Below are positions 3,632 to 18,763 of a stretch of DNA of 25,834 nt, in pieces. Source of the stretch: Candidatus Micrarchaeia archaeon (GTDB lineage Archaea; Micrarchaeota; Micrarchaeia; Anstonellales; Bilamarchaeaceae); NCBI GenBank assembly GCA_041650355.1, contig JBAZLI010000003.1, positions 1 to 25,834 of the forward strand, given 5' to 3'. The position numbers were made by a program, and so were the translations under genes. Each line of letters begins with the position of its first letter. Position 1 is the first letter of the stretch. The notes under the pieces are model-generated. The model did not search any database and was not told where the DNA came from. It worked only from the letters and a program-made list of their open reading frames with translations.

Positions 3632-5248
3632 GCGCATGAGCATCCACACGATTTCCACGTGCGAGTCCTTCATGCCGACGCGCCTGAAAGCAGAGCGCAG
3701 GAGCTCTATGTCCTCCTTTCCGAAAGCCCTGAGGAGCGAGAGGAAGACGAAATAAATGGCGCAGCAAACGAGGAACAGAATTCCCAGGACTCCGAACTGC
3801 CATACCTTCTGGAAAGCCGGGCTGGAAGCTATTTCAGCCGGAAGAGGGACGCTGAACCCGAATAAAACCGCGAAATAATCCTTCAGCAGGAGGAAAGCGC
3901 CCAGGGCCAGGAGGGCGGCAAGGAAGGGGCGCACGCTGCCGGCTAGGAAAGTGCCGCCCGCGAACTTTCTGGAATAGTAAATCAGCAGGAGCGAAACCGA
4001 GATAAGGGCGATTGCTGAAGCGAACGCCGCGCCCTCCATCCCGTAGCCGGGTATGAGCAGGACATTGAGAACCACGTTGAGGAGCGCTCCGAACACCGCG
4101 ATTCCCAGTTCCACTTTCATCAGCCTCATCGCCGCAAGGACCGAACTGTGAACCGTGCTCGCGGTCCTGAGGAACACCCCTATTGTGAAGATGGAGAGCA
4201 CAAGCGCCCCGGATGCATACGCAGAGCCGTAGAAAAGCACGAGTATCTCTTTCGGGAGCGATATGAGCAGCATCGCCGCCGGAACCATGAGTATGAGCAC
4301 CCAGCGCGTCGCGAACGTCGAGCTTTCAAGCATCTCTTTCTTCTTGCCCTTCGCATAAAGCTCGGATATTATCGGAAGGAATATGTTGCCTAGCGCGGAC
4401 GGGAATATGGAGACCACCCCTCCGAGCGTGGTAGCCATTGCGTACACCGCTATTACGCCCGCGGCCTTTGAGGGGTCTATCATGTATCCCAGCATTATCC
4501 TGTCGCTCGACGAGATGAGGATCCACATCGCTGTTATGACCGAGAGCACGGCTCCGAAAGGGACCGCCTCCTTCAGCGCCTCCACCTGGTCTTTCAAGCT
4601 GACTTCCGAGGCTATGCCGCTCTCATCAATCATCTTCTTCACGTACCAGAAAGAGAGGAGGGCCGCGAGCACGAACGAAGCCACATAAGCAGCGGTGAGG
4701 CTCAGCACGCTGGAGCCGATGAAAACGAAAAGCAACACAGTGAGCACGAGCTTGAGGGCGTGCTGGCTGTTGGAAAGCAGGACCTGCGTCCGCACGTTCT
4801 TCATGCTCAGGAGCGAGTAGCTGTTCAGGTTGAGCAGGCTGTTCACGAGCACGAAGAACGCGAGCACCTGCATTACTATTTCTAGGTCCGGATTCCCGGC
4901 GCTCTCTGCGATGTAGGGCGCCCCTATCATTATGAGAATGCCCATGAGCACCGAAAAGAAAGTGACGAACCAGTATGCGCCCCTCAGCAGCGCATATGCC
5001 TTCTTTTTCTCGCCTTTCCCCATATAGTACGGTATGAAGCGTGTGAAGGCCGCGAACAGTCCCAGATCCCCGAAAATCCCGAGTATGCTTATGAAGCCCA
5101 GTCCGAGGTAGAAAGTGCCTATGTCCTGCTGGCTGAACAGGCGCGTGGACACCATAAGGTAAACGAAAGAGATGATTTTGAAGAACAGGTTGCCGACAAG
5201 GCCCCACACAGTGCCCTTCACGACCGTTTTTTGTTCCTCGAGCGCCAT
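3623..5248 (-). CDS. wzx: polysaccharide/oligosaccharide flippase of the MOP superfamily (Wzx-like)
   Basis: The 541-aa product is strongly hydrophobic throughout, with about 12-14 predicted TM segments. The N-terminal VKGTVWGLVGNLFFKIISFVYLMVSTRLFSQQDIGTFYL is typical of the polysaccharide biosynthesis protein (Wzx/RfbX) family. It is convergent with gmhB, with a 9-nt overlap of the 3' ends. Confidence 0.75.
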   Translation of the reverse strand: MALEEQKTVVKGTVWGLVGNLFFKIISFVYLMVSTRLFSQQDIGTFYLGLGFISILGIFGDLGLFAAFTRFIPYYMGKGEKKKAYALLRGAYWFVTFFSVLMGILIMIGAPYIAESAGNPDLEIVMQVLAFFVLVNSLLNLNSYSLLSMKNVRTQVLLSNSQHALKLVLTVLLFVFIGSSVLSLTAAYVASFVLAALLSFWYVKKMIDESGIASEVSLKDQVEALKEAVPFGAVLSVITAMWILISSSDRIMLGYMIDPSKAAGVIAVYAMATTLGGVVSIFPSALGNIFLPIISELYAKGKKKEMLESSTFATRWVLILMVPAAMLLISLPKEILVLFYGSAYASGALVLSIFTIGVFLRTASTVHSSVLAAMRLMKVELGIAVFGALLNVVLNVLLIPGYGMEGAAFASAIALISVSLLLIYYSRKFAGGTFLAGSVRPFLAALLALGAFLLLKDYFAVLFGFSVPLPAEIASSPAFQKVWQFGVLGILFLVCCAIYFVFLSLLRAFGKEDIELLRSAFRRVGMKDSHVEIVWMLMRSE

Positions 5249-5329: not shown

Positions 5330-7102
5330 ATGAAGCTAGGCCTTGAAATCCACCAGCGGCTGGATACGCACAAGCTTTTCTGCAGCTGCCCAGCGAAAGA
5401 GGGCAGAGGCGAGCCCAAAAAAGTCGTGCGCACGCTCCACCCGGTTTACAGCGAGATGGGCGAGGTGGACAAAACATCCCTTGCGGAAGCCGAGAGGGAG
5501 CAGACTTTCGAATACCTGTTTTACGATGACTGCTGCTGCCTCGTGGAGCTTGATGAGGAGCCGCCGCATCCGCTTAACGCGGAAGCCCTGCGCATCGGGC
5601 TTGAAATCGCGCTCCAGCTCAAATCCAGGCCCGTGGACGAAGTGCACGTGATGCGCAAAACAGTGATAGACGGGAGCAACACGTCCGGATTCCAGCGCAC
5701 AGCGGTAATCGCGATGGGCGGGAAGGTGGAAAGCAAGAACGGCGACGTGCGCGTGAGCACAGTTGCAATAGAAGAGGAGAGCGCGGGCATAGTTGAGAAA
5801 AAAGGGGGGAGAGCGATATATTCACTCGATAGATTAGGAATTCCGCTGGTCGAGATAGGGACCGAGCCGGACATAAAAAGCCCCGAGCACCTCAGGGAAA
5901 TTGCCGAGAAAATAGGGCTCATGCTCAGGGCTACGGGGAAGGTCATGCGCGGCCTCGGAACGATAAGGCAGGACGTGAACGTGAGTGTGGAAGGCGGCGC
6001 GCGGGTTGAGATAAAAGGCGCCCAGGACTTGAAATCCATTGCGCTTATTGCGGAAAACGAGGCGAAAAGGCAGGAAGCCCTGCTTGCGACAATAAGGGAA
6101 GTTGGGAAAAGATTCGGCGGAAAAGCCGAGTTGAGCGGAAAAATCCTGGACGCGAGCGATTTGTTCAAAGGGACTCAGGCGAAGCTTCTGAAAGCCGGAC
6201 TGGATTCAGGGCAGAAAGTGCTTGGAATGAAGCTGGAAAGGCACGCAGGGCTGCTCGGAAAAGAGATAAACCTGGGCAGGAGGTACGGAACCGAGCTGAG
6301 CGACTATGCGAAAACCGCTGGCGTGAAAGGGCTGATACACAGCGACGAGGACATGGAAAAATACGGAATTGCGGATAAAGAGCATGCCGATATTTGCAGG
6401 ATGCTCAAAATGGAAAAAGAGGATGCGTTCGTGCTTGTGGTCGCGCAGGAAGGCGTTGCAAAAAAAGCCCTGGAAAAAGCGCTTGCGCGGGCAAGGATGG
6501 ATTTCATCCCGAAGGAAACCAGGAAAGCCAACGCGGACGGCACCAGCTCGTTCATGCGCCCTCTTGCAGGGCGCGCGAGGCTTTATCCCGAAACCGACAT
6601 CCCGCCGGTGCGCGTAAGCGCGGAACTGCTCGATGAAACAAGGTCCGGGGCTTCCGAGAGCCTGGAGCAGAAGAGGGAGAAGCTTCTCAAGCTGCTCAAC
6701 AAGGATATGGCAGAACGGATGCTGCGCTCCAGGAACCTGAATGTTTTCGAAAAGCTGGTTGAGATGAAAATCGAGCCTACGCTTGCAGCCGCGACTCTGG
6801 AGGATACGCTCACAATGCTCAGGAGGGAGGGCGTGGAAGTAGGCGGGGAGCATGTGCTCGCGCTTTTCGCAGAGTACCAGAAGGGGAGCTTCGTGAAGGC
6901 CGCGATACCGAATTTGCTGAAGGAAACCGCAAGAGGAAAAAGCTTGGAAAATGCCCTTGACGAGAAGCAGCTGCGGAAAATAAGCGGAGCGGAACTAAGG
7001 AAAATAATAAGGGAAAACAGCAAAAGCATGGCCGCGATAATGGCCAAGTACCGCCTGCGCGTGGATTCAAAGGAGGTTGCGGAGCTGATAAAGTCTATGT
7101 AA
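5330..7102 (+). CDS. gatE: glutamyl-tRNA(Gln) amidotransferase subunit E (archaeal GatE)
   Basis: The 590-aa product starts MKLGLEIHQRLDTHKLFCSCP, matching the GatE N-terminus. It has an inserted AspRS-like domain and a C-terminal YqeY-like tail (AELRKIIRENSKSMAAIMAKY). The ORF track starts earlier at 5231, but that part overlaps the wzx start and promoter. The ATG at 5330 is verified. Confidence 0.9.
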   Translation: MKLGLEIHQRLDTHKLFCSCPAKEGRGEPKKVVRTLHPVYSEMGEVDKTSLAEAEREQTFEYLFYDDCCCLVELDEEPPHPLNAEALRIGLEIALQLKSRPVDEVHVMRKTVIDGSNTSGFQRTAVIAMGGKVESKNGDVRVSTVAIEEESAGIVEKKGGRAIYSLDRLGIPLVEIGTEPDIKSPEHLREIAEKIGLMLRATGKVMRGLGTIRQDVNVSVEGGARVEIKGAQDLKSIALIAENEAKRQEALLATIREVGKRFGGKAELSGKILDASDLFKGTQAKLLKAGLDSGQKVLGMKLERHAGLLGKEINLGRRYGTELSDYAKTAGVKGLIHSDEDMEKYGIADKEHADICRMLKMEKEDAFVLVVAQEGVAKKALEKALARARMDFIPKETRKANADGTSSFMRPLAGRARLYPETDIPPVRVSAELLDETRSGASESLEQKREKLLKLLNKDMAERMLRSRNLNVFEKLVEMKIEPTLAAATLEDTLTMLRREGVEVGGEHVLALFAEYQKGSFVKAAIPNLLKETARGKSLENALDEKQLRKISGAELRKIIRENSKSMAAIMAKYRLRVDSKEVAELIKSM

Positions 7103-13146: not shown

Positions 13147-13926
13147 ATGGACGCAAAACGTAGCCTAACTAGAAAAGATCCAGGCACTTACAGAGAGGGC
13201 TACAATAGCACCCCTAAACACGGCCCGCTGATTCTCCATCCGCTGCTTGACAGCATGCTCGCCGTGAATCCGGCCCAATTCATAAGCCGGAAGATAGATG
13301 AAACGCTCGTAAAGATTCCGGGCGCTCTCAAAACAGACCAACCGATATGGACGTTTGAAGTCGTAGTTTTTCCAAAGCCCTATGGCGCTTTTGAAAAGGG
13401 CGTGGATATAATAGACCCGATAACAGGCTGGATTTTCCCGTGGATGCAGATACCCGGAAGCGCCTTCGGGGTTAAAGGCATTGCCCTTCAATTCATTCCT
13501 TCCTTATCGGGCAGCGGTGAAGGCACCGTTGTAAGCCCCAGAAATTCAAAAGCCATCATTACGGTGGAAGATTTTATTCAAGGGGCCATGGGCGAGGGAG
13601 CTGTGCATCCAGGCTCTCGTTTGGCCACAGTCAAGGCGGCAACCGGAAATCAGCTTCGCACGCTCAAGCGGCCACCCACCGAAGGAATACGCATTGCAAC
13701 TAGATGTGCATTTGACTGGAATCTCATAAGCCTTGCGGACCATCCGGATAAAGAAAGGTTCTGGCTCGTATTTTTGCAGCCCATCGCCAAATCCATGGTG
13801 CCCGAATCATCCGAACAAAAACCTCCGGATTCCACGTCAAGCAGGATTCCGAAAAGAGTTGACATACAACCCGATTCTGAAGTCGAAGTATTGATGCACG
13901 GGCTTAAAGAAGTACTGGGCAAATGA
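13147..13926 (+). CDS. hypothetical protein (ORFan; coding status uncertain)
   Basis: The 259-aa ORF has no family signature I can recognise. Its amino-acid composition and lower GC differ from flanking genes. Several overlapping minus-strand ORFs of similar length exist, which is typical of non-coding or decayed sequence. Confidence 0.25.
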   Translation: MDAKRSLTRKDPGTYREGYNSTPKHGPLILHPLLDSMLAVNPAQFISRKIDETLVKIPGALKTDQPIWTFEVVVFPKPYGAFEKGVDIIDPITGWIFPWMQIPGSAFGVKGIALQFIPSLSGSGEGTVVSPRNSKAIITVEDFIQGAMGEGAVHPGSRLATVKAATGNQLRTLKRPPTEGIRIATRCAFDWNLISLADHPDKERFWLVFLQPIAKSMVPESSEQKPPDSTSSRIPKRVDIQPDSEVEVLMHGLKEVLGK

Positions 13927-14136
13927 GCGCCCGCCCCCTAATCCTGAAAAGAAAAAAGTGCAGGAGTCATTTTGGCTGTTGCCAAAAGTTCCTTCATTTT
14001 AAAAATAAAATGCAGGGAGCAAGATTGTCAGCTTGCTGGCAATTTTTGGTCGCCAGACCAAAGCTTTTGAACTTGCGCAGCTGCTAGAGCACCAGACCCT
14101 GAATCTGGCACGTTTGACCGGGCTCCGCCATCCCTG

Positions 14137-14200
14137 CACCATATCCCTTTCTTTTTAGAAAAAAGAAAGGTCTGAGGTCTTTACCCCAAAGAAAAACTAT
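14137..14200. repeat. intergenic repeat element, copy A (pyrimidine/purine hairpin plus CTGAGG-ACCCC-AAAGAAAAAC module)
   Basis: An 11-bp perfect hairpin CCTTTCTTTTT-ag-AAAAAGAAAGG at 14146-14169 is followed by tCTGAGGtcTTT-ACCCC-AAAGAAAAAC. The same module recurs at 15434-15474, and a truncated copy at 15523-15539. Confidence 0.6.
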
Positions 14201-14218
14201 CTTTGAGGTTAATATCAA

Positions 14219-14376
14219 TAGCCCCGACCGGATTTTCTCTACTCCCGCTGCCGATAAGCGAACGGGGGTATCCAGGAATAAGGGGGTTCCTTTCAAACAA
14301 AATAAAACCCCCTGTCTTTCGAACCGGTGTCACAAGGTCCAGAGCCTCGTATCCTTGACCGCTAGACTACGGGGCT
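14219..14376 (-). tRNA. tRNA-Gln (anticodon CUG) with a putative ~85-nt intron in the T-loop
   Basis: The minus strand reads 5' AGCCCCG UA GUCU AGCGGUCAA GGAU A CGAGG CUCUGGA CCUUG UGAC ACCGG UUCGAA. This runs through the acceptor stem, D-arm (with G.U pairs as in Pyrococcus tRNA-Gln), anticodon arm with loop CU-CUG-GA, and T-stem with a UUCGAA T-loop start. The T-arm does not close locally. About 85 nt further 3' lies UCCGGUCGGGGCCU, which is the complement of both the T-stem and 6 of 7 acceptor positions, plus a discriminator. Exon 1 is 14318-14376, the intron is about 14233-14317, and exon 2 is 14219-14232. Position 1:72 would be A.C. Confidence 0.55.
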
Positions 14377-14466
14377 ATTGCAGATGACTTACTCTGCAAA
14401 AGTTTTTATATATCCCGCCCCCATCTACAATAAGCAGCAATTACGATTTGTATTGGAGGTGTTCGA
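14377..14466. promoter_or_regulatory. bidirectional promoter region for tRNA-Gln(-) and the stomatin gene(+)
   Basis: An AT-rich core tttttatatatc at 14403-14414 serves both directions. On the minus strand atatataaaaac lies about 27-37 nt upstream of the tRNA 5' end. On the plus strand, a GGAGGTG Shine-Dalgarno motif sits 6 nt before the ATG at 14467. A hairpin GCAGATGACTTACTCTGC abuts the tRNA 5' end. Confidence 0.5.
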
Positions 14467-15243
14467 ATGGCATGGGAAGTCCTTGTTGGTTGCGCGCCCG
14501 TGGTGGCAATAGGCGCTCTGGCGATTGCGGCCGCTTCAATAAAGATAGTGATGCAGTACGAAAGCGGGATAGTGTTCACGCTAGGAAAGTTTTCAGGCAT
14601 TGCGAACCCCGGGATAAATTTCATCATCCCGCTGATACAGAGCATGCGCAAGGTGGACACGAGGATACTCACGATCGACATTCCCAAGCAGGAAGTCATG
14701 ACCAAGGACAACGTGCCGATGGGCGTTAACGGCGTCGTATTCTTCAAGGTGGAAAACGTGGAGAAAGCGGTGCTCCAGATACAGGATTACCACTATTCCG
14801 TTTCCCAATACGCGCAAACAGCTTTGAGGGACGTGATAGGCAGCAAGGAGATGGACGCCGTGCTTTCCAACCGCGACGAAGTCGCGAACGAGATAAAGAT
14901 AATAGTGGACAAGGAAACCACGGAATGGGGCATCGACGTCACCAACATAAAAATCCAGGACATCGAGCTTCCAGCGGACATGAAGCGCATAATGGCGAGG
15001 CAGGCCGAAGCCGAGAGGGAGAAGCGGGCCAAGATAATAGAGAGCGAGGCCGAGCTCATGGCATCGGAAAAGGTGGCGAAGGCCGCGCAGATGCTTGCCA
15101 GCACTCCGGGCGGGTTGCACCTAAAGACGCTCCTCACGATTTCCAACGTCGCGGCGTTCGACGGCAACTCGGTGGTTTTCGTGACTCCGATTGAATTGCT
15201 GGAAGCGATAAAGGGCTTTACGGGCATGAAGAAAAAGCAATAG
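14467..15243 (+). CDS. SPFH/band-7 (stomatin/prohibitin-like) membrane protein
   Basis: The 258-aa product has an N-terminal TM helix. The SPFH domain follows, with IVMQYESGIVFTLGKFSG, RILTIDIPKQEVMTKDNVPMGVNGVVFFKV and AEAEREKRAKIIESEAEL. Confidence 0.85.
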   Translation: MAWEVLVGCAPVVAIGALAIAAASIKIVMQYESGIVFTLGKFSGIANPGINFIIPLIQSMRKVDTRILTIDIPKQEVMTKDNVPMGVNGVVFFKVENVEKAVLQIQDYHYSVSQYAQTALRDVIGSKEMDAVLSNRDEVANEIKIIVDKETTEWGIDVTNIKIQDIELPADMKRIMARQAEAEREKRAKIIESEAELMASEKVAKAAQMLASTPGGLHLKTLLTISNVAAFDGNSVVFVTPIELLEAIKGFTGMKKKQ

Positions 15244-15284
15244 CCCTTTTATTCTTTTTTATTCCTATTATACTACTATTTCTC

Positions 15285-15356
15285 GGGCTGGTAGATCAAC
15301 GGCAGATCGCATCGTTCGCATCGATGAGGCTGAGGGTTCAAATCCCTCCCAGTCCA
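15285..15356 (+). tRNA. tRNA-Ala (anticodon CGC)
   Basis: GGGCUGG UA GAUC AACGGCA GAUC G CAUCG UUCGCAU CGAUG AGGCU GAGGG UUCAAAU CCCUC CCAGUCC A. The cloverleaf is intact, with the G3:U70 wobble that is the universal alanine identity element. The anticodon loop is UU-CGC-AU and the T-loop is TTCAAAT. There is no encoded CCA. A TATA-like attcctattatac lies about 20-30 nt upstream. Confidence 0.85.
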
Positions 15357-15365
15357 TACCCATAT

Positions 15366-15474
15366 CCCCTTTTCTTTTGACTCAGCGGTCGACTATTCGA
15401 CCGCTTCGCCGTAAAAACCTTCGGTTTTTCCGGAAAAGAAAAGGGGCTGAGGGTTTCACCCCTAAAAGAAAAAC
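15366..15474. repeat. intergenic repeat element, copy B: 13-bp terminal inverted repeats enclosing two perfect hairpins, followed by the conserved module
   Basis: CCCCTTTTCTTTT (15366-15378) and its exact reverse complement AAAAGAAAAGGGG (15434-15446) flank a 55-nt core. The core contains hairpin GCGGTCGA-ctat-TCGACCGC (15385-15404) and hairpin AAAAACC-ttc-GGTTTTT (15413-15429). CTGAGGGTTTC-ACCCC-TAAAAGAAAAAC follows, as in copy A. A third perfect 9-bp hairpin TTGCCTCGA-aacg-TCGAGGCAA sits at 15501-15522. Confidence 0.6.
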
Positions 15475-15522
15475 GGCTTGAATTGCATTTCGACCACAAT
15501 TTGCCTCGAAACGTCGAGGCAA

Positions 15523-15560
15523 TCCCCCAAAAAGAAAACTATATATTCTATATCTGTTTA
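15523..15560 (+). promoter_or_regulatory. BRE/TATA-like promoter for mscL, overlapping a third truncated copy of the conserved module
   Basis: cccccaaaaagaaaac-tatatattctatatc. A purine-rich BRE-like stretch is immediately 5' of TATATATT, and the ATG at 15579 lies about 27 nt downstream of the TATA. Confidence 0.45.
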
Positions 15561-15578
15561 TCCTGCTTGGGTGGATTT

Positions 15579-15884
15579 ATGGGATTGATTCAGGAATTCA
15601 AGGATTTTCTGCATGAATACAAGGTGATGGGGCTTGCAGTGGCTTTCATCATGGCCGTGGCCACGAACACGCTCATAAAGGCGCTCGTTGACGACCTGAT
15701 AATGCCCTTTGTAGGCATAGTGCTCCCGAATGGCGATTGGAAAACCGCGACTCTCGCCCTAGGGCCGCTGCTCCTGAAATGGGGCGACTTCCTGAGCGCG
15801 CTCATAAACTTCCTGATAATGGCATTCGTGGTGTTCATCATCGCGAAGATGGTGCTCAAGGAGGAGAAAGTGACAAAGAAATAA
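15579..15884 (+). CDS. mscL: large-conductance mechanosensitive channel
   Basis: The 101-aa product starts MGLIQEFKDFLHEYKVMGLAVAFIMAVATNTLIKALVDDLIMPFVG, which matches the MscL TM1 consensus (EFK.F..RGNV.DLAVGVIIG..F..IV.SLV.DIIMP). A second TM helix and a charged C-terminal tail follow. The ATG at 15579 was chosen over the ORF-track start at 15483. Confidence 0.8.
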   Translation: MGLIQEFKDFLHEYKVMGLAVAFIMAVATNTLIKALVDDLIMPFVGIVLPNGDWKTATLALGPLLLKWGDFLSALINFLIMAFVVFIIAKMVLKEEKVTKK

Positions 15885-17114: not shown

Positions 17115-18763
17115 TAGCTGACCTGCTCAAGGAAAGGAGGAACCAGCTCCTGCTCGCGCTCTTCGCGCTCTTCCTAGGCGGCACTTTGCTCTATTCCAAA
17201 TACTCCGGGCTCATACTCCTGTTCGCGTTCTTCCTTTTCGGGACTTTCTCCACCGTGTGGAAGAACAAGAACGCGCGCTTCCTTTCCCTAGCGCTCCTGA
17301 TAGTGCTTTCATTGGCCAACGTCGCGTTCAACGGCGTGAAATTCGGGATAGACTTCTCAGGGGGAACCAGGATACCAGTGGTGCTCGAGCACTCAGTGAG
17401 CGAGTCCACCATGACCGAAATGGTGCAAATAATAAAGAGCAGGGCCTCGGTCCTCGGTCTTACGGAAGTGAAGGTCCGCGCGGTCGGAACCTCGCAGATA
17501 GACGTGGAGGTTCCGGGCACGGACGAGAACCTGATAAAGAGCATAGAGGATGTCCTGAGGCACCAGGGTGTTTTCGAAGGGATAGTGGACGGTAAAGTCG
17601 CGCTTAGCGGCGAGGACATACTTCCTGGAACCATATACTCCATATCCGCGACCCAGCTGAGCGGAGCTGACTGGGGCGTGGGATTCTCAGTCACCAGGAG
17701 CGGCGCTGACGCGTTCGCCCAGACGGTGAAGGGGAAAGCAGAGTACCCATTGTACATGTTCCTCGACAGGCCCAAGGACGCGGCGATTTTCATCTCCCTG
17801 GAGGACCTCAAGGGAGGCAAGACCATCGCGGACAAGGACGTGCTGGAAATGGCCAACAAGTCCCTGCGGCTCGACGGGGACGACATCCAGCTTTTCATAC
17901 TGGACGATTTCGGCTACAACGCGACCGCGAACGGCACTAAGGCCCTGGTTTCCGCGAACTTGGACAATTCCACCAAAGAGAAAATACGCTCGCTCGGCTT
18001 CAACGTCACCGAAGTCGAGGACATAAAGCCGGTGTTCAGGACCGGCGCTTCGGCCCGCGACTCGGCGATGGAGCAGTGGCCCGCGATAGGGCTGCTTTCA
18101 GCGCCCCGCCTCTCCGCCGGAGTGACCAACGGCGTGCCTTCCTACGGATACTCCATAACAGGCGCGGCTCAGGGCGTGGGCACCGAGCGCGCGGTGAACG
18201 CGCAGAACGAAGTGAAAAAAATCACCTCGATTTTGAAAGGCGGCTCGCTTCCGGTCCAAATCTCATTGGGCAGCAGGACCTCCATCCCTGCGCCGCTCGG
18301 ACAGCAGTTCCTCCAGCTCAGCCTCCTGGGCATACTCGCATCCATAATCGCGATATCCCTTTTCGTTTCGGTGCGGTACAGGCACTGGAAGCTCGTGCTC
18401 CCCATAGTCGCGGTGAGCATTTCCGAGCTCATAATACTCGTTTCCCTGCTCGGCTCGTTCACAATTGATTTGGCGGGCATGGCCGGAATCCTCGCGGCCC
18501 TAGGAGTCGGAGTGGATTCGCAGATAGTCATTACCGACGAACTGGCGAAGAAGGACGGGAAGAACCACGAGGAAAAGCTCTCGCACGCGTTTGACATCAT
18601 AACGACCAACGTCGCTGTCGCGGTTGTTGCAATGCTGCCCCTGCTTTTCAGCGGCATGGTAGAGATAATCGGGTTCGCGCTCTCCACCATAATAGGCTCA
18701 CTGCTCGGATTCATGCTCTCCAGGCCGGTCTACGCGCTCCTCGTGGAGAAGCTGATGGAATAA
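17111..18763 (+). CDS. secD: protein-export membrane protein SecD
   Basis: The 550-aa product starts MIADLLKERRNQLLLALFALFLGG. It has GIDFSGGTRI, a large extracytoplasmic domain and a C-terminal TM bundle (GMAGILAALGVGVDSQIVI). GGAGGG lies upstream. The ORF-track start at 16748 is an artefact, because that portion overlaps secF in another frame. Confidence 0.85.
   Translation: MIADLLKERRNQLLLALFALFLGGTLLYSKYSGLILLFAFFLFGTFSTVWKNKNARFLSLALLIVLSLANVAFNGVKFGIDFSGGTRIPVVLEHSVSESTMTEMVQIIKSRASVLGLTEVKVRAVGTSQIDVEVPGTDENLIKSIEDVLRHQGVFEGIVDGKVALSGEDILPGTIYSISATQLSGADWGVGFSVTRSGADAFAQTVKGKAEYPLYMFLDRPKDAAIFISLEDLKGGKTIADKDVLEMANKSLRLDGDDIQLFILDDFGYNATANGTKALVSANLDNSTKEKIRSLGFNVTEVEDIKPVFRTGASARDSAMEQWPAIGLLSAPRLSAGVTNGVPSYGYSITGAAQGVGTERAVNAQNEVKKITSILKGGSLPVQISLGSRTSIPAPLGQQFLQLSLLGILASIIAISLFVSVRYRHWKLVLPIVAVSISELIILVSLLGSFTIDLAGMAGILAALGVGVDSQIVITDELAKKDGKNHEEKLSHAFDIITTNVAVAVVAMLPLLFSGMVEIIGFALSTIIGSLLGFMLSRPVYALLVEKLME

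Follow-up and report, generated by a model that had tools for sequence, protein, structure and literature searches.

The gain, movement and loss of archaeal tRNA introns, together with the fragmentation of tRNA genes, are a long-standing question, and the origin of these introns has been argued mostly from the Thermoproteales and a few organisms with split tRNAs. Archaeal introns excised at bulge-helix-bulge (BHB) motifs, such as the translocatable ones of the Thermoproteales and those of the intron-rich Micrarchaeum ARMAN-2, interrupt tRNAs at position 37/38, in the T-loop (59/60 region) and elsewhere, and homologous sequences occur in introns of different tRNAs and at different positions. 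Among archaeal tRNA introns, those of the non-canonical kind are considered able to translocate (PMC4390854), and a broad-specificity endonuclease is described for the host lineage (PMC3239211, PMC4390854). Short, non-coding, multi-copy and hairpin-forming sequences that show presence/absence polymorphism, nested loop insertions and insertion into RNA genes are known as MITEs, REP/BIME, Correia, Rickettsia palindromic and mitochondrial hairpin elements (PMC2800124). Further points of comparison are archaeal oligo-T terminators, H-DNA-forming mirror repeats, RNA triplexes of the ENE type (MALAT1/PAN) and the split tRNA genes of Nanoarchaeum equitans and Caldivirga.

Here we describe a repeat family of ~60 nt, previously undescribed and lineage-specific to a clade of Micrarchaeia (DPANN archaea), two copies of which (A and B) are found in the 25,834-nt stretch of Candidatus Micrarchaeia DNA analysed as a whole (the window). 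The family core consists of CCCATAT, a pyrimidine arm C3-4 T(a) C T(b), a loop, a purine arm A(b) G A(a) G2-4, the linker CTGAGGGTTTCA and a tail C4-5 A(a) G A(b). In our view copies A and B are probably members of a proliferating, intron-associated structured repeat rather than plain terminators. With archaeal BHB introns the family shares the sites of interruption, the BHB-like junctions predicted there and the recurrence of homologous sequence in different tRNAs. However, the conserved 60-nt core, the homopyrimidine/homopurine hairpin and the mirror purine tail have no described counterpart among those introns, and the family is also found outside tRNAs (3' flanks, inverted in 5' flanks, ORF starts), the window copies themselves not being introns. 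A literature search returned nothing specific on the element, its sequence or repeats in DPANN/Micrarchaeota tRNA introns.

Copy A spans 14139..14197 on the plus strand and is inverted relative to both flanking tRNAs. It is composed of CCATAT (14139-14144), the pyrimidine arm CCCTTTCTTTTT (14145-14156) followed by a loop AGA, the purine arm AAAAAGAAAGG (14160-14170), the linker TCTGAGGTCTTTA (14171-14183) and the tail CCCCAAAGAAAAAC (14184-14197), a mirror of the purine arm with run lengths 3,5. The covariance model R1 scores it at 74.2 bits (E = 6e-16). The first-pass annotation had described a perfect 11-bp hairpin CCTTTCTTTTT/AAAAAGAAAGG at 14146-14170 and, 3' of it, a module of CTGAGGTCTTTACCCC and then AAAGAAAAAC; all of these are present. 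The unit that it delimited is real, but the conserved part begins earlier, at CCATATCC (14139 in copy A, 15360 in copy B).

Both tRNA genes next to copy A lie on the minus strand and are interrupted in the T-loop. The 5' end of tRNA-Leu(CAG) (14011..14137) is 1 nt from copy A; its intron comprises ~40 nt (about 14026-14065), and in-silico removal of 39-41 nt leads ARAGORN to call tRNA-Leu(cag). In tRNA-Gln(CUG) (14219..14376), whose acceptor stem is visible as an 11-nt inverted repeat, the intron has 83-85 nt (about 14235-14317), as judged by in-silico splicing and subsequent ARAGORN prediction. A distance of 21 nt separates the 3' end of this gene from the copy A tail. The first-pass annotation had placed the elements near tRNA 3' ends; copy A is in addition next to the 5' end of tRNA-Leu. 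Intronless orthologues exist for tRNA-Leu(cag) in L002 and L003 (same strand) and for tRNA-Gln in L003. Unaided ARAGORN and Rfam missed tRNA-Leu and tRNA-Gln of the window, and model R1 could flag such disrupted tRNA genes that escape standard tRNA finders. The tRNA-Leu(CAG) gene at 14011-14137 was also overlooked in the first-pass annotation.

Copy B (15360..15474, plus strand) starts 3 nt past the discriminator base of tRNA-Ala(CGC), which is located at 15285..15356 on the plus strand (ARAGORN; Rfam tRNA 64.6 bits). Here CCATAT (15360-15365) precedes the pyrimidine arm CCCCTTTTCTTTT (15366-15378), a loop insert (15379-15433), the purine arm AAAAGAAAAGGGG (15434-15446), the linker CTGAGGGTTTCA (15447-15458) and the tail CCCCTAAAAGAAAAAC (15459-15474). 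As noted before, the two arms are pulled apart, by exactly 55 nt, and the same module as in copy A, CTGAGGGTTTCACCCC-TAAAAGAAAAAC, follows. Model R1 recovers copy B across the insert at 72.7 bits (E = 1.5e-15). Its predicted fold is Y-shaped, and the region 15357-15545 has a z-score of -7.6. Direct MAFFT alignment of copies A and B failed due to the 55-nt insert; repeat finding and reading of the sequence were more useful. Two perfect hairpins had been reported in the insert, and both exist, at 15384-15405 and about 15409-15433 (AAAAACC/GGTTTTT), but the stem of the first has 9 bp instead of 8. The nested insertion is likewise real, though not peculiar to this copy: it is one case of a clade-wide accretion of perfect 9-11-bp hairpins into loops. 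The additional perfect hairpin claimed downstream was recovered too (TTGCCTCGA-AACG-TCGAGGCAA, 15501..15522, unstranded, 9-bp stem and 4-nt loop) and belongs to the same accreted class. The hairpins at copies A and B are not chance occurrences; perfect hairpins with a stem of at least 8 bp number only four in the whole 25.8-kb window, three of them here. The motif patterns of the element are, within the window, confined to these sites. An orthologous copy B follows tRNA-Ala in L002, and an identical copy is present in L081.

A pattern scan that used the 3' module only returned 32 more copies in 30 metagenome contigs, nearly all of which also carry CCATATCC and a pyrimidine/purine hairpin upstream, although neither had been searched for. 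Model R1 detected 30 copies at E < 1e-8 (L001, L055 and L112 included); in the closest relatives, more members were added by the covariance model. It has to be noted that this census draws on fragments of many metagenomes and not on one complete genome. The idea of a repeated element holds, and the condition named in the first-pass annotation as refuting it, a motif without other copies and without conservation in relatives, is clearly contradicted by more than 30 copies beyond the window. The contigs L001, L002 and L055 represent Micrarchaeota-type MAGs, and the PolD small subunit encoded on L099 matches an NCBI 'Candidatus Micrarchaeia' protein with 100% identity. Among Rfam families, only tRNA-Ala reaches its gathering score across the whole window, and at E <= 5 nothing credible was found on either strand of 13850-15650.

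Most copies reside inside introns of several tRNA species, which are interrupted at position 37/38, in the T-loop or elsewhere. According to ARAGORN, the element is held by canonical introns in L085, L088, L089, L104 and L107; T-loop or late intron positions are occupied in L055, L084, L087 and L100. In many members the mature tRNA sequence is interrupted (L055, L084-L089, L099a, L104, L107, L112a). Neither window copy does this: copy B lies after tRNA-Ala, and copy A occupies the spacer of tRNA-Leu and tRNA-Gln, on the strand opposite to both. In about nine cases, including copy B, L002, L091, L092b, L095, L098, L101 and L106b, only 0-3 nt separate the start of the element from a preceding tRNA 3' end predicted by ARAGORN. 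At two independent loci (copy A and L099b/L112b) an inverted element is located 1-4 nt before the 5' end of a tRNA. Copies were also found at ORF 5' ends (L097, L105), and one between a promoter and its tRNA (L083). The tie to tRNA genes had been recognized from the window; what had not been foreseen is that the main home of the element is inside tRNA introns, where its base is predicted to be part of the BHB splice motif.

For the intron copies, deleting segments and rerunning ARAGORN proved too permissive for assigning exact splice sites, and yielded tRNA identity and approximate position only. In the predicted pre-tRNA fold of L088 we found a strict 3-4-3 BHB (3-nt bulge, 4-bp helix, 3-nt bulge), and approximate or near-canonical motifs appear in the minimum free energy (MFE) folds of L086, L107 and L099a; for L104 and L089 the MFE fold shows another pairing of the anticodon stem. 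In the predicted BHB, the CCC..GGG base of the element makes up the outer helix, and the basal helix begins at the 5' splice-site bulge. We propose that the long hairpin supplies the outer BHB helix in intron copies, so that the broad-specificity splicing endonuclease could remove the element harmlessly, which would allow it to persist and spread as a selfish passenger. Such splicing-based tolerance does not directly apply to the window copies, since neither lies in an intron; being outside mature tRNAs, they may be discarded with the trailer or leader.

Orthologous sites in more distant relatives are free of the element, and empty sites were seen in L002, L003, L113 and L114. For example, there is no element between tRNA-Leu and tRNA-Gln in L002 and L003, and at tRNA-Lys and tRNA-Arg(UCU) it is absent in L113 and present in L099 and L112. 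The 37/38 intron of tRNA-Cys has only 12 nt in L112, while it carries the element in L088 and L107. Duplicated flanks were found in L097 (39 nt) and L105 (51 nt), and of 12-13 nt at the tRNA 5' end in L083 and L106a; in L091 and L095 the 3' part of the tRNA is duplicated in tandem. Copies in position-37/38 introns have no flanking repeats. Since the flanking duplications vary in length and have partly diverged, they are not classical target-site duplications. As the element is a recognizable, recently active marker at varied sites with empty sites in relatives, the intron process becomes directly traceable in DPANN genomes.

The first-pass annotation had suggested a mobile MITE-like element or a small structured RNA. 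A repeated, structured, tRNA-tied and probably mobile element is supported, but membership among the MITEs is not established, given the internal hairpin arms, the lack of a fixed target-site duplication and the absence of any transposase seen. The family does have many dispersed copies with presence/absence polymorphism, as MITEs do. However, the inverted repeat is internal, forming a hairpin with a 3-4-nt loop, and the two ends of the element, CCCATAT... and ...AAAAGAAAAC, do not correspond in inverted orientation; duplications of 12-13, 39, 51 nt or longer, partly diverged, contrast with the fixed length typical of MITEs. Compared to MITEs and palindromic elements, the family thus has neither terminal inverted repeats around its core nor an identified partner transposase, and its tie to tRNA exon ends is extreme. 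In the flanks examined we encountered no transposase, the neighbours being housekeeping genes, and our search gave no transposition mechanism, enzyme or clean pair of empty and filled sites with exact boundaries. As regards a possible mobilization of the IS200/IS605 or REP/RAYT type, there is no conserved upstream target tetranucleotide and no transposase was seen. Transposition of the element is proposed here. Both its spread and its local instability, in the form of duplications, tandem arrays and hairpins accreted into loops, most likely arise from events at the DNA level that the hairpin- and triplex-forming sequence promotes.

The hairpin is maintained in the family by compensatory changes. 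Of its 11 pairs six vary on both sides, pairing holds in 99.7% of the cells, and none of 500 shuffles reaches this. In 26 of 28 copies the tail repeats the purine arm in mirror order in its purine run. Among the 11 asymmetric copies nine are mirrors and none is a direct repeat, a result not reached in any of 100000 permutations; a tail acting as Watson-Crick partner of the pyrimidine arm fits none of the 11 either. These tests were based on run-length parsing, a sliding mirror/direct score being uninformative for A-rich runs. In four orthologous pairs all three segments changed together, and the divergent variant L092b, which has two interruptions, is also mirrored. Covariation of three segments is rarely met with in nature and is a signature of a constraint of the triplex type. 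From it we infer an intramolecular triplex under selection, with H-DNA and, on the complementary strand, a pyrimidine-purine-pyrimidine helix as the candidates. The strong conservation and the three-way covariation could also mean that the element has a host function instead of spreading selfishly.

It is possible, although we advance this only tentatively, that both arms and the mirror tail fold as a triple helix which drives the biology of the element, i.e. that the family is a selected triplex-forming device. Candidate forms would be chromosomal H-DNA or, where the complementary strand is present as RNA or single-stranded DNA, a U.A-U/C+.G-C helix. The element has a homopurine-homopyrimidine tract with mirror symmetry, as known from H-DNA, and the interruption in arm and tail covaries. 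Unlike in H-DNA or ENE triplexes, its G-run and C-run are complementary and not mirrored, and the triplex is predicted here purely from covariation. If formed, it might stall replication or transcription at tRNA genes and thereby cause template switches, duplications and hairpin accretion that create and move tRNA introns; alternatively, it might protect a processed RNA end beside a tRNA. Should one of these apply, the family would be the first triplex-based element known from nature, mobile or regulatory, that is connected with the disruption of archaeal tRNA genes.

T-runs occur on both strands of the element, and bidirectional termination had been ascribed to them. This is possible for the minus strand of copy A, where T5 (14196-14192) and T6 (14164-14159) follow tRNA-Gln at a distance of 22 and 55 nt, but weak for copy B, which offers only T4CT4 after tRNA-Ala, compared to T6-T7 at gene ends in the window. 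One could go further and regard the family as a dedicated cis-regulatory tRNA module, a bidirectional oligo-T terminator or insulator, perhaps with a promoter, which selection keeps at the borders of tRNA genes and whose copies resemble each other due to function and not mobility. The copies starting directly past tRNA 3' ends and the inverted ones just 5' of tRNAs would fit, as would the similarity of the T-rich arm of the inverted element to the TATA region of tRNA-Ala and a tail adjoining the TATA box of mscL in L001. Yet we consider such a module unlikely: in tRNA introns, where most copies sit, or in the promoter-tRNA gap of L083, termination would abolish the tRNA, and a terminator role is hard to square with copies inside tRNA transcription units in general. 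Conservation moreover extends far beyond the T-runs, oligo-T termination requires no mirror tail, and ORF 5' ends are occupied as well. Archaeal oligo-T terminators are similar in having T-runs soon after tRNA 3' ends, on both strands, whereas those of the family are interrupted, shorter than those at the gene ends of the window, tolerated inside transcription units and accompanied by conserved non-T segments. Within a proliferating intron-associated repeat, the T-runs of the window copies may add some termination, with the T5 and T6 runs of copy A acting after tRNA-Gln, and tRNA-Leu might have its TATA-like promoter in the T-rich, A/T-centred hairpin that lies 20-30 nt before it.

The strong folding (z = -7.6) and covariation would also fit a functional structured RNA. 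Archaeal BHB excision yields circular introns, so a stable, possibly circular RNA could arise from introns or trailers. Another version follows the logic of the MALAT1 ENE and mascRNA: MALAT1 is matured by RNase P beside a tRNA-like RNA (PMC13541005), and a U.A-U/C+.G-C triplex on the complementary strand might guard an RNase P-made end upstream of a tRNA. A perfect 9-triplet register is available on the minus strand of copy A, in which TTTTTCTTT would run parallel to AAAAAGAAA while TTTCTTTTT pairs in Watson-Crick fashion, ending 8 nt before the 5' end of tRNA-Leu. The complementary strand has the order of an ENE plus A-tract (U-rich, stem-loop, U-rich, A-rich), immediately 5' of a tRNA at two loci. 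In contrast to the ENE, orientation relative to transcription is mostly opposite, and the archaeal host has no poly(A) context. At ~21 of ~29 sites the strand that is competent for the triplex (pyrimidine-pyrimidine-purine) lies antisense to the tRNA, with no known promoter to transcribe it, and the sense RNA would require a purine-motif triplex, for which there is little support in RNA. Considering also that no Rfam family matches on either strand, we regard a functional RNA as improbable and retain the proliferating repeat.

tRNA genes are classical integration targets, and partial tRNA duplications flank the copies in L091, L095, L083 and L106a. That the copies are scars of such events, i.e. 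att-site remnants of plasmids or viruses, as integration has been proposed as a source of tRNA introns and fragments (PMC3293823), is nonetheless very hard to believe, since one att core cannot explain the same 60-nt element with at least 10 tRNA species and at several positions, no integrase or foreign genes are adjacent in the flanks examined, and scanning viral contigs with the module pattern gave 0 matches. Two other readings were discarded. For a C/D-box or K-turn RNA, reading of the sequence reveals CUGA but neither a C box nor G.A pairs. Split tRNA genes, in which the tail would serve as promoter of the 3' half, show some likeness: sequence straight after the tRNA 5' exon is followed by a T-run, and position-37/38 copies have a complementary AUAUGGG before the 3' exon. 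However, in the family the halves are adjacent, 3' exons lack a preceding TATA, most copies have none after the tail, and the BHB predicted is a normal one in cis.

On the mscL side of copy B, a truncated tail copy had been noted before the TATA box, and CCCCCAAAAAGAAAAC (15525-15540) does adjoin TATATATT. This second tail copy is fused to the TATA box of the mscL promoter (15525..15548, plus strand), with mscL, assigned by Pfam, at 15579-15884. In L001 there is a single tail, GGTTTCACCCCTAAAAGAAAAC, immediately adjoining TATATAAT. A purine-rich stretch (AAAAG or AAAAC) before a TTTATATA-type box is found at several promoters of the window, e.g. those of SPFH and mscL.

Re-examination of the window bore out the sequence statements of the first-pass annotation. 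Copy A of the ~60-nt element (14139-14197, +) contains a perfect 11-bp pyrimidine/purine hairpin, and in copy B (15360-15474, +) the same arms are separated by 55 nt enclosing two hairpins; a third perfect hairpin (9 bp) and a partial copy of the tail lie upstream of the mscL TATA box. The shared sequence starts earlier than had been proposed, at CCATATCC. In the entire window there are four perfect hairpins with stems of at least 8 bp, three of them in this region, and the fold of 15357-15545 reaches z = -7.6.

The copies are embedded in a housekeeping stretch of archaeal chromosome (GatD, NurA, dCTP deaminase, HAD hydrolase, SPFH/band-7 protein, MscL, SecF), the SPFH protein being 94% identical to that of L001, a Micrarchaeota-type MAG, and 82%, 79% and 75% identical to others. 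The only window tRNA detected by ARAGORN and Rfam was tRNA-Ala(CGC) (15285-15356, +). Both missed tRNA-Leu(CAG) (14011-14137, -) and tRNA-Gln(CUG) (14219-14376, -), which were recovered by in-silico removal of T-loop introns of ~40 and 83-85 nt, respectively; relatives likewise have the two tRNAs upstream of SPFH, on the minus strand. For Micrarchaeum, non-canonical introns, in the T-loop (59/60) and elsewhere, have been described, as has an epsilon2 splicing endonuclease of broad specificity (PMC3239211). The left half of the map therefore reads tRNA-Leu (-), 1 nt, copy A (+), 21 nt, tRNA-Gln (-), shared TATA region and SPFH (+), and the right half tRNA-Ala (+), 3 nt, copy B (+), hairpin, second tail, TATA box and mscL. 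The TATA region of the left half is a single palindrome, TTTTTATATAT (14402-14413), ~26-37 nt upstream of tRNA-Gln (-) and ~55 nt before the start codon of SPFH (+), and is probably a divergent promoter common to both. Two window ORFs (13147-13926, 259 aa; 17191-17898, 234 aa) gave no Pfam match.

In keeping with the family of elements suspected earlier, a metagenome scan with the 3' module alone, CTGAGGNNTTYACCCC(N)AAARRRRAA, yielded 32 matches in 30 contigs, against ~2 chance hits estimated from the pattern's information content, and more copies were present in the closest relatives. Nearly all matches carry, outside the searched pattern, an upstream CCATATCC and a perfect pyrimidine/purine hairpin of 11-13 bp. 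Loop inserts like that of copy B occur in L103, L106a and L085/L094 (L numbers denote compared loci from relatives' MAGs and metagenomes, letter suffixes the copy), and in L101 the hairpin is precisely deleted. A covariance model trained on 23 copies retrieved 30 copies at E < 1e-8, among them those of L055 and of L001 and L112, which belong to one MAG, the window's closest relative; it found none in ~40 more distant Micrarchaeota/DPANN loci. The viral contigs scanned had no copy either. The carrier contig L099 codes for PolD, fibrillarin and RtcA, its PolD small subunit matching an NCBI 'Candidatus Micrarchaeia' protein at 100% identity. The element matches no Rfam family, nor is it mentioned in the searchable literature. 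The finding is real and of greater interest than the initial proposal: the copies make up a hitherto undescribed family of structured repeats that is clade-specific, associated with tRNAs and introns, and marked by covariation of a triplex type. Its kind, a translocatable archaeal tRNA intron sequence or a miniature palindromic repeat, is already known; the variant and its three-segment architecture are not.

The hairpin is kept through compensatory change: 6 of its 11 pairs vary on both sides with 99.7% of cells paired, none of 500 shuffles matched the observed covariation values, and slid controls collapsed. The purine tail is the mirror (reverse, not reverse complement) of the purine arm. 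Copies were parsed into successive segments of the form C(n)T(a)CT(b), A(b)GA(a)G(m) and C(k)A(a)GA(b). Tail and pyrimidine arm agreed in the proximal run length a for 26 of the 28 copies, and k = n+1 held for 24 of 28. Of the 11 copies in which a differs from 4, nine show exact mirror symmetry and none a direct repeat, an outcome reached by 0 of 100000 permutations; as the scan pattern left the arms unconstrained, it is not an ascertainment effect. All three segments changed jointly in four orthologous pairs (window A/L001A, window B/L002B, L099a/L112a and L099b/L112b). The divergent L092b, located after tRNA-Trp, with two interruptions and a linker that measures only 6 nt, is likewise a mirror.

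Homopurine-homopyrimidine sequence with mirror symmetry is the classical motif of H-DNA. Read along the complementary strand, the element runs pyrimidine (Hoogsteen strand), stem-loop, pyrimidine (Watson-Crick strand), loop and purine, and copy A there provides a perfect register of nine T.A-T/C+.G-C triplets; the strand shown would permit a purine-motif triplex only. As an alternative to a triplex, a shape-reading DNA-binding protein could recognise the weak/strong base-pair pattern, which would then be read as a direct repeat.

The element nearly always starts immediately after the end of a tRNA exon. It resides in canonical 37/38 introns of tRNA-Leu(UAA), tRNA-Cys(GCA) and tRNA-Arg(UCU) (L085, L086, L088, L089, L099a, L104, L107, L112a), in T-loop or later introns of tRNA-Leu(CAG), tRNA-Leu(UAG) and others (L055, L084, L087, L096, L100), or 0-3 nt past the 3' end of complete tRNAs for Ala, Ile, Trp and Arg (window B, L002, L091, L092b, L095, L098, L101, L106b). 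In L083 and L106a the start of a complete downstream tRNA is duplicated as a 5' fragment of 12-13 nt, which the element follows. Inverted elements abut a tRNA 5' end at two independent loci (tRNA-Leu, window A/L001A; tRNA-Lys, L099b/L112b), and a few copies are found at ORF starts, with duplications of 39 nt (L097) and 51 nt (L105). Anticodon arm and intron are predicted to fold into a bulge-helix-bulge (BHB) splice motif, strict in L088 and near canonical in L086, L107 and L099a, in which the basal CCC..GGG of the element forms the outer helix beside the 5' splice-site bulge; this would account for the position of the element right behind the exon. In L097 (~6300-6480, -), the element separates the 39-nt copy of the ORF 5' end from the complete ORF, and the three differences between the two are all synonymous, which points to a possible BHB-type intron in an mRNA. 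Downstream of tRNA-Trp in L092 (1726-1935; also L110), two members are arranged tail to tail, ~95 nt apart, one of them being the divergent form, whose arm measures 16 bp and whose linker 6 nt.

Orthologous sites differ among relatives. The tRNA-Gln/tRNA-Leu spacer harbours the element in the window and L001, not in L002 and L003; at the tRNA-Ala 3' flank both the window and L002 have it, their inserts being placed differently, L001 retains it in half-degraded form and L003 lacks it. For tRNA-Leu(CAG), the T-loop intron of L055 contains the element, the window has a different 40-nt intron, and L002 and L003 are intronless. The tRNA-Cys 37/38 intron measures 12 nt in L112 and contains the element in L088 and L107. 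In L099 and L112 the element accompanies tRNA-Lys and tRNA-Arg; in L113 (~70% PolD identity), tRNA-Lys, tRNA-Arg(UCU) and tRNA-Cys have other short introns or leaders and lack it. Together with the tandem arrays of L095 and the duplicated flanks, these differences indicate the behaviour of a proliferating element. The mobility postulated in the first-pass annotation is thus probable; membership in the MITEs is not established, as neither a transposase nor an integrase was seen in the flanking regions, nor a fixed target-site duplication. The introns of tRNA-Gln(CUG) also differ: the window has its T-loop intron, L003 (990-1062) none, and L001 (1790-1945) and L002 (3795-3905) different introns at other positions, implying very fast intron turnover at one gene. 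Sequences closely related to the 40-nt intron of the window tRNA-Leu(CAG), AGCUUU...CAGCAAGCUGACA, are found in L099 (~5990-6040), within the T-loop intron of tRNA-Arg(UCU), and in L086, where they occupy the same position in tRNA-Leu(UAA); this is a second intron family shared by different tRNAs.

The 55-nt stretch of copy B had been regarded as a nested insert. It is better seen as one instance of a wider process in this clade, the accretion of hairpins into loops. Compared with other archaeal loci, element-bearing loci are 4-7 times richer in perfect hairpins (stems of 9-11 bp, loops of 3-4 nt), which form arrays beside tRNAs and also nest in the loops of other hairpins (L002, 4943-5028; L083, 13357-13478; L085, 2548-2674). 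In L001 copy A, a related hairpin with AAAACCTTCGGTTTT lies elsewhere, between CCAATATCC and the pyrimidine arm. Copy B is therefore no full-length element from which copy A arose by deletion; rather, loops gain hairpins by accretion. Such accretion is reminiscent of hairpin creation by template switching. Another parallel is found in some mitochondria, with their repetitive hairpin-forming elements (PMC2800124). Arrays near tRNAs were noted in L001, L002, L083, L085, L094, L095 and L099, some hairpins being clearly related across genomes (ATTCGTCG-N4-CGACGAAT).

Both window copies are external to the mature tRNAs and would thus be removed along with trailer or leader. True gene ends in the window have T6-T7 runs. 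Of the terminator function ascribed to the T-runs, an accessory role is plausible for copy A, whose minus strand offers T5 and T6 after tRNA-Gln; copy B has only T4CT4 after tRNA-Ala. An accessory promoter role of copy A is likewise plausible, because its T-rich hairpin, centred on A/T and located 15-33 nt upstream of tRNA-Leu, resembles the tRNA-Ala TATA region. Neither is the main purpose of the family, since most members lie inside tRNA transcription units, in line with the earlier view that these are not plain terminators. In the mscL promoter, the second tail (15525-15540) may serve as the purine-rich, BRE-like part; L001 has a single tail, which directly adjoins the TATA box.

Other structured sequences were observed near tRNAs. 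Upstream of tRNA-Leu(CAG), three relatives (L001, 1553-1661; L002, 3625-3790; L055, minus strand) share a conserved mini-helix absent from the window. It repeats the first 12-13 nt of this tRNA (GCAGGGGTGGCG), followed by hairpins and the complementary CCCGCCA...CCCCTGC, and may either mimic an acceptor stem or represent an alternative first exon. In L112, a structured, GC-rich non-coding stretch of ~140 nt (4075-4215) is located between the promoter region of tRNA-Lys and the tRNA-Cys gene; it is partially conserved in L099.
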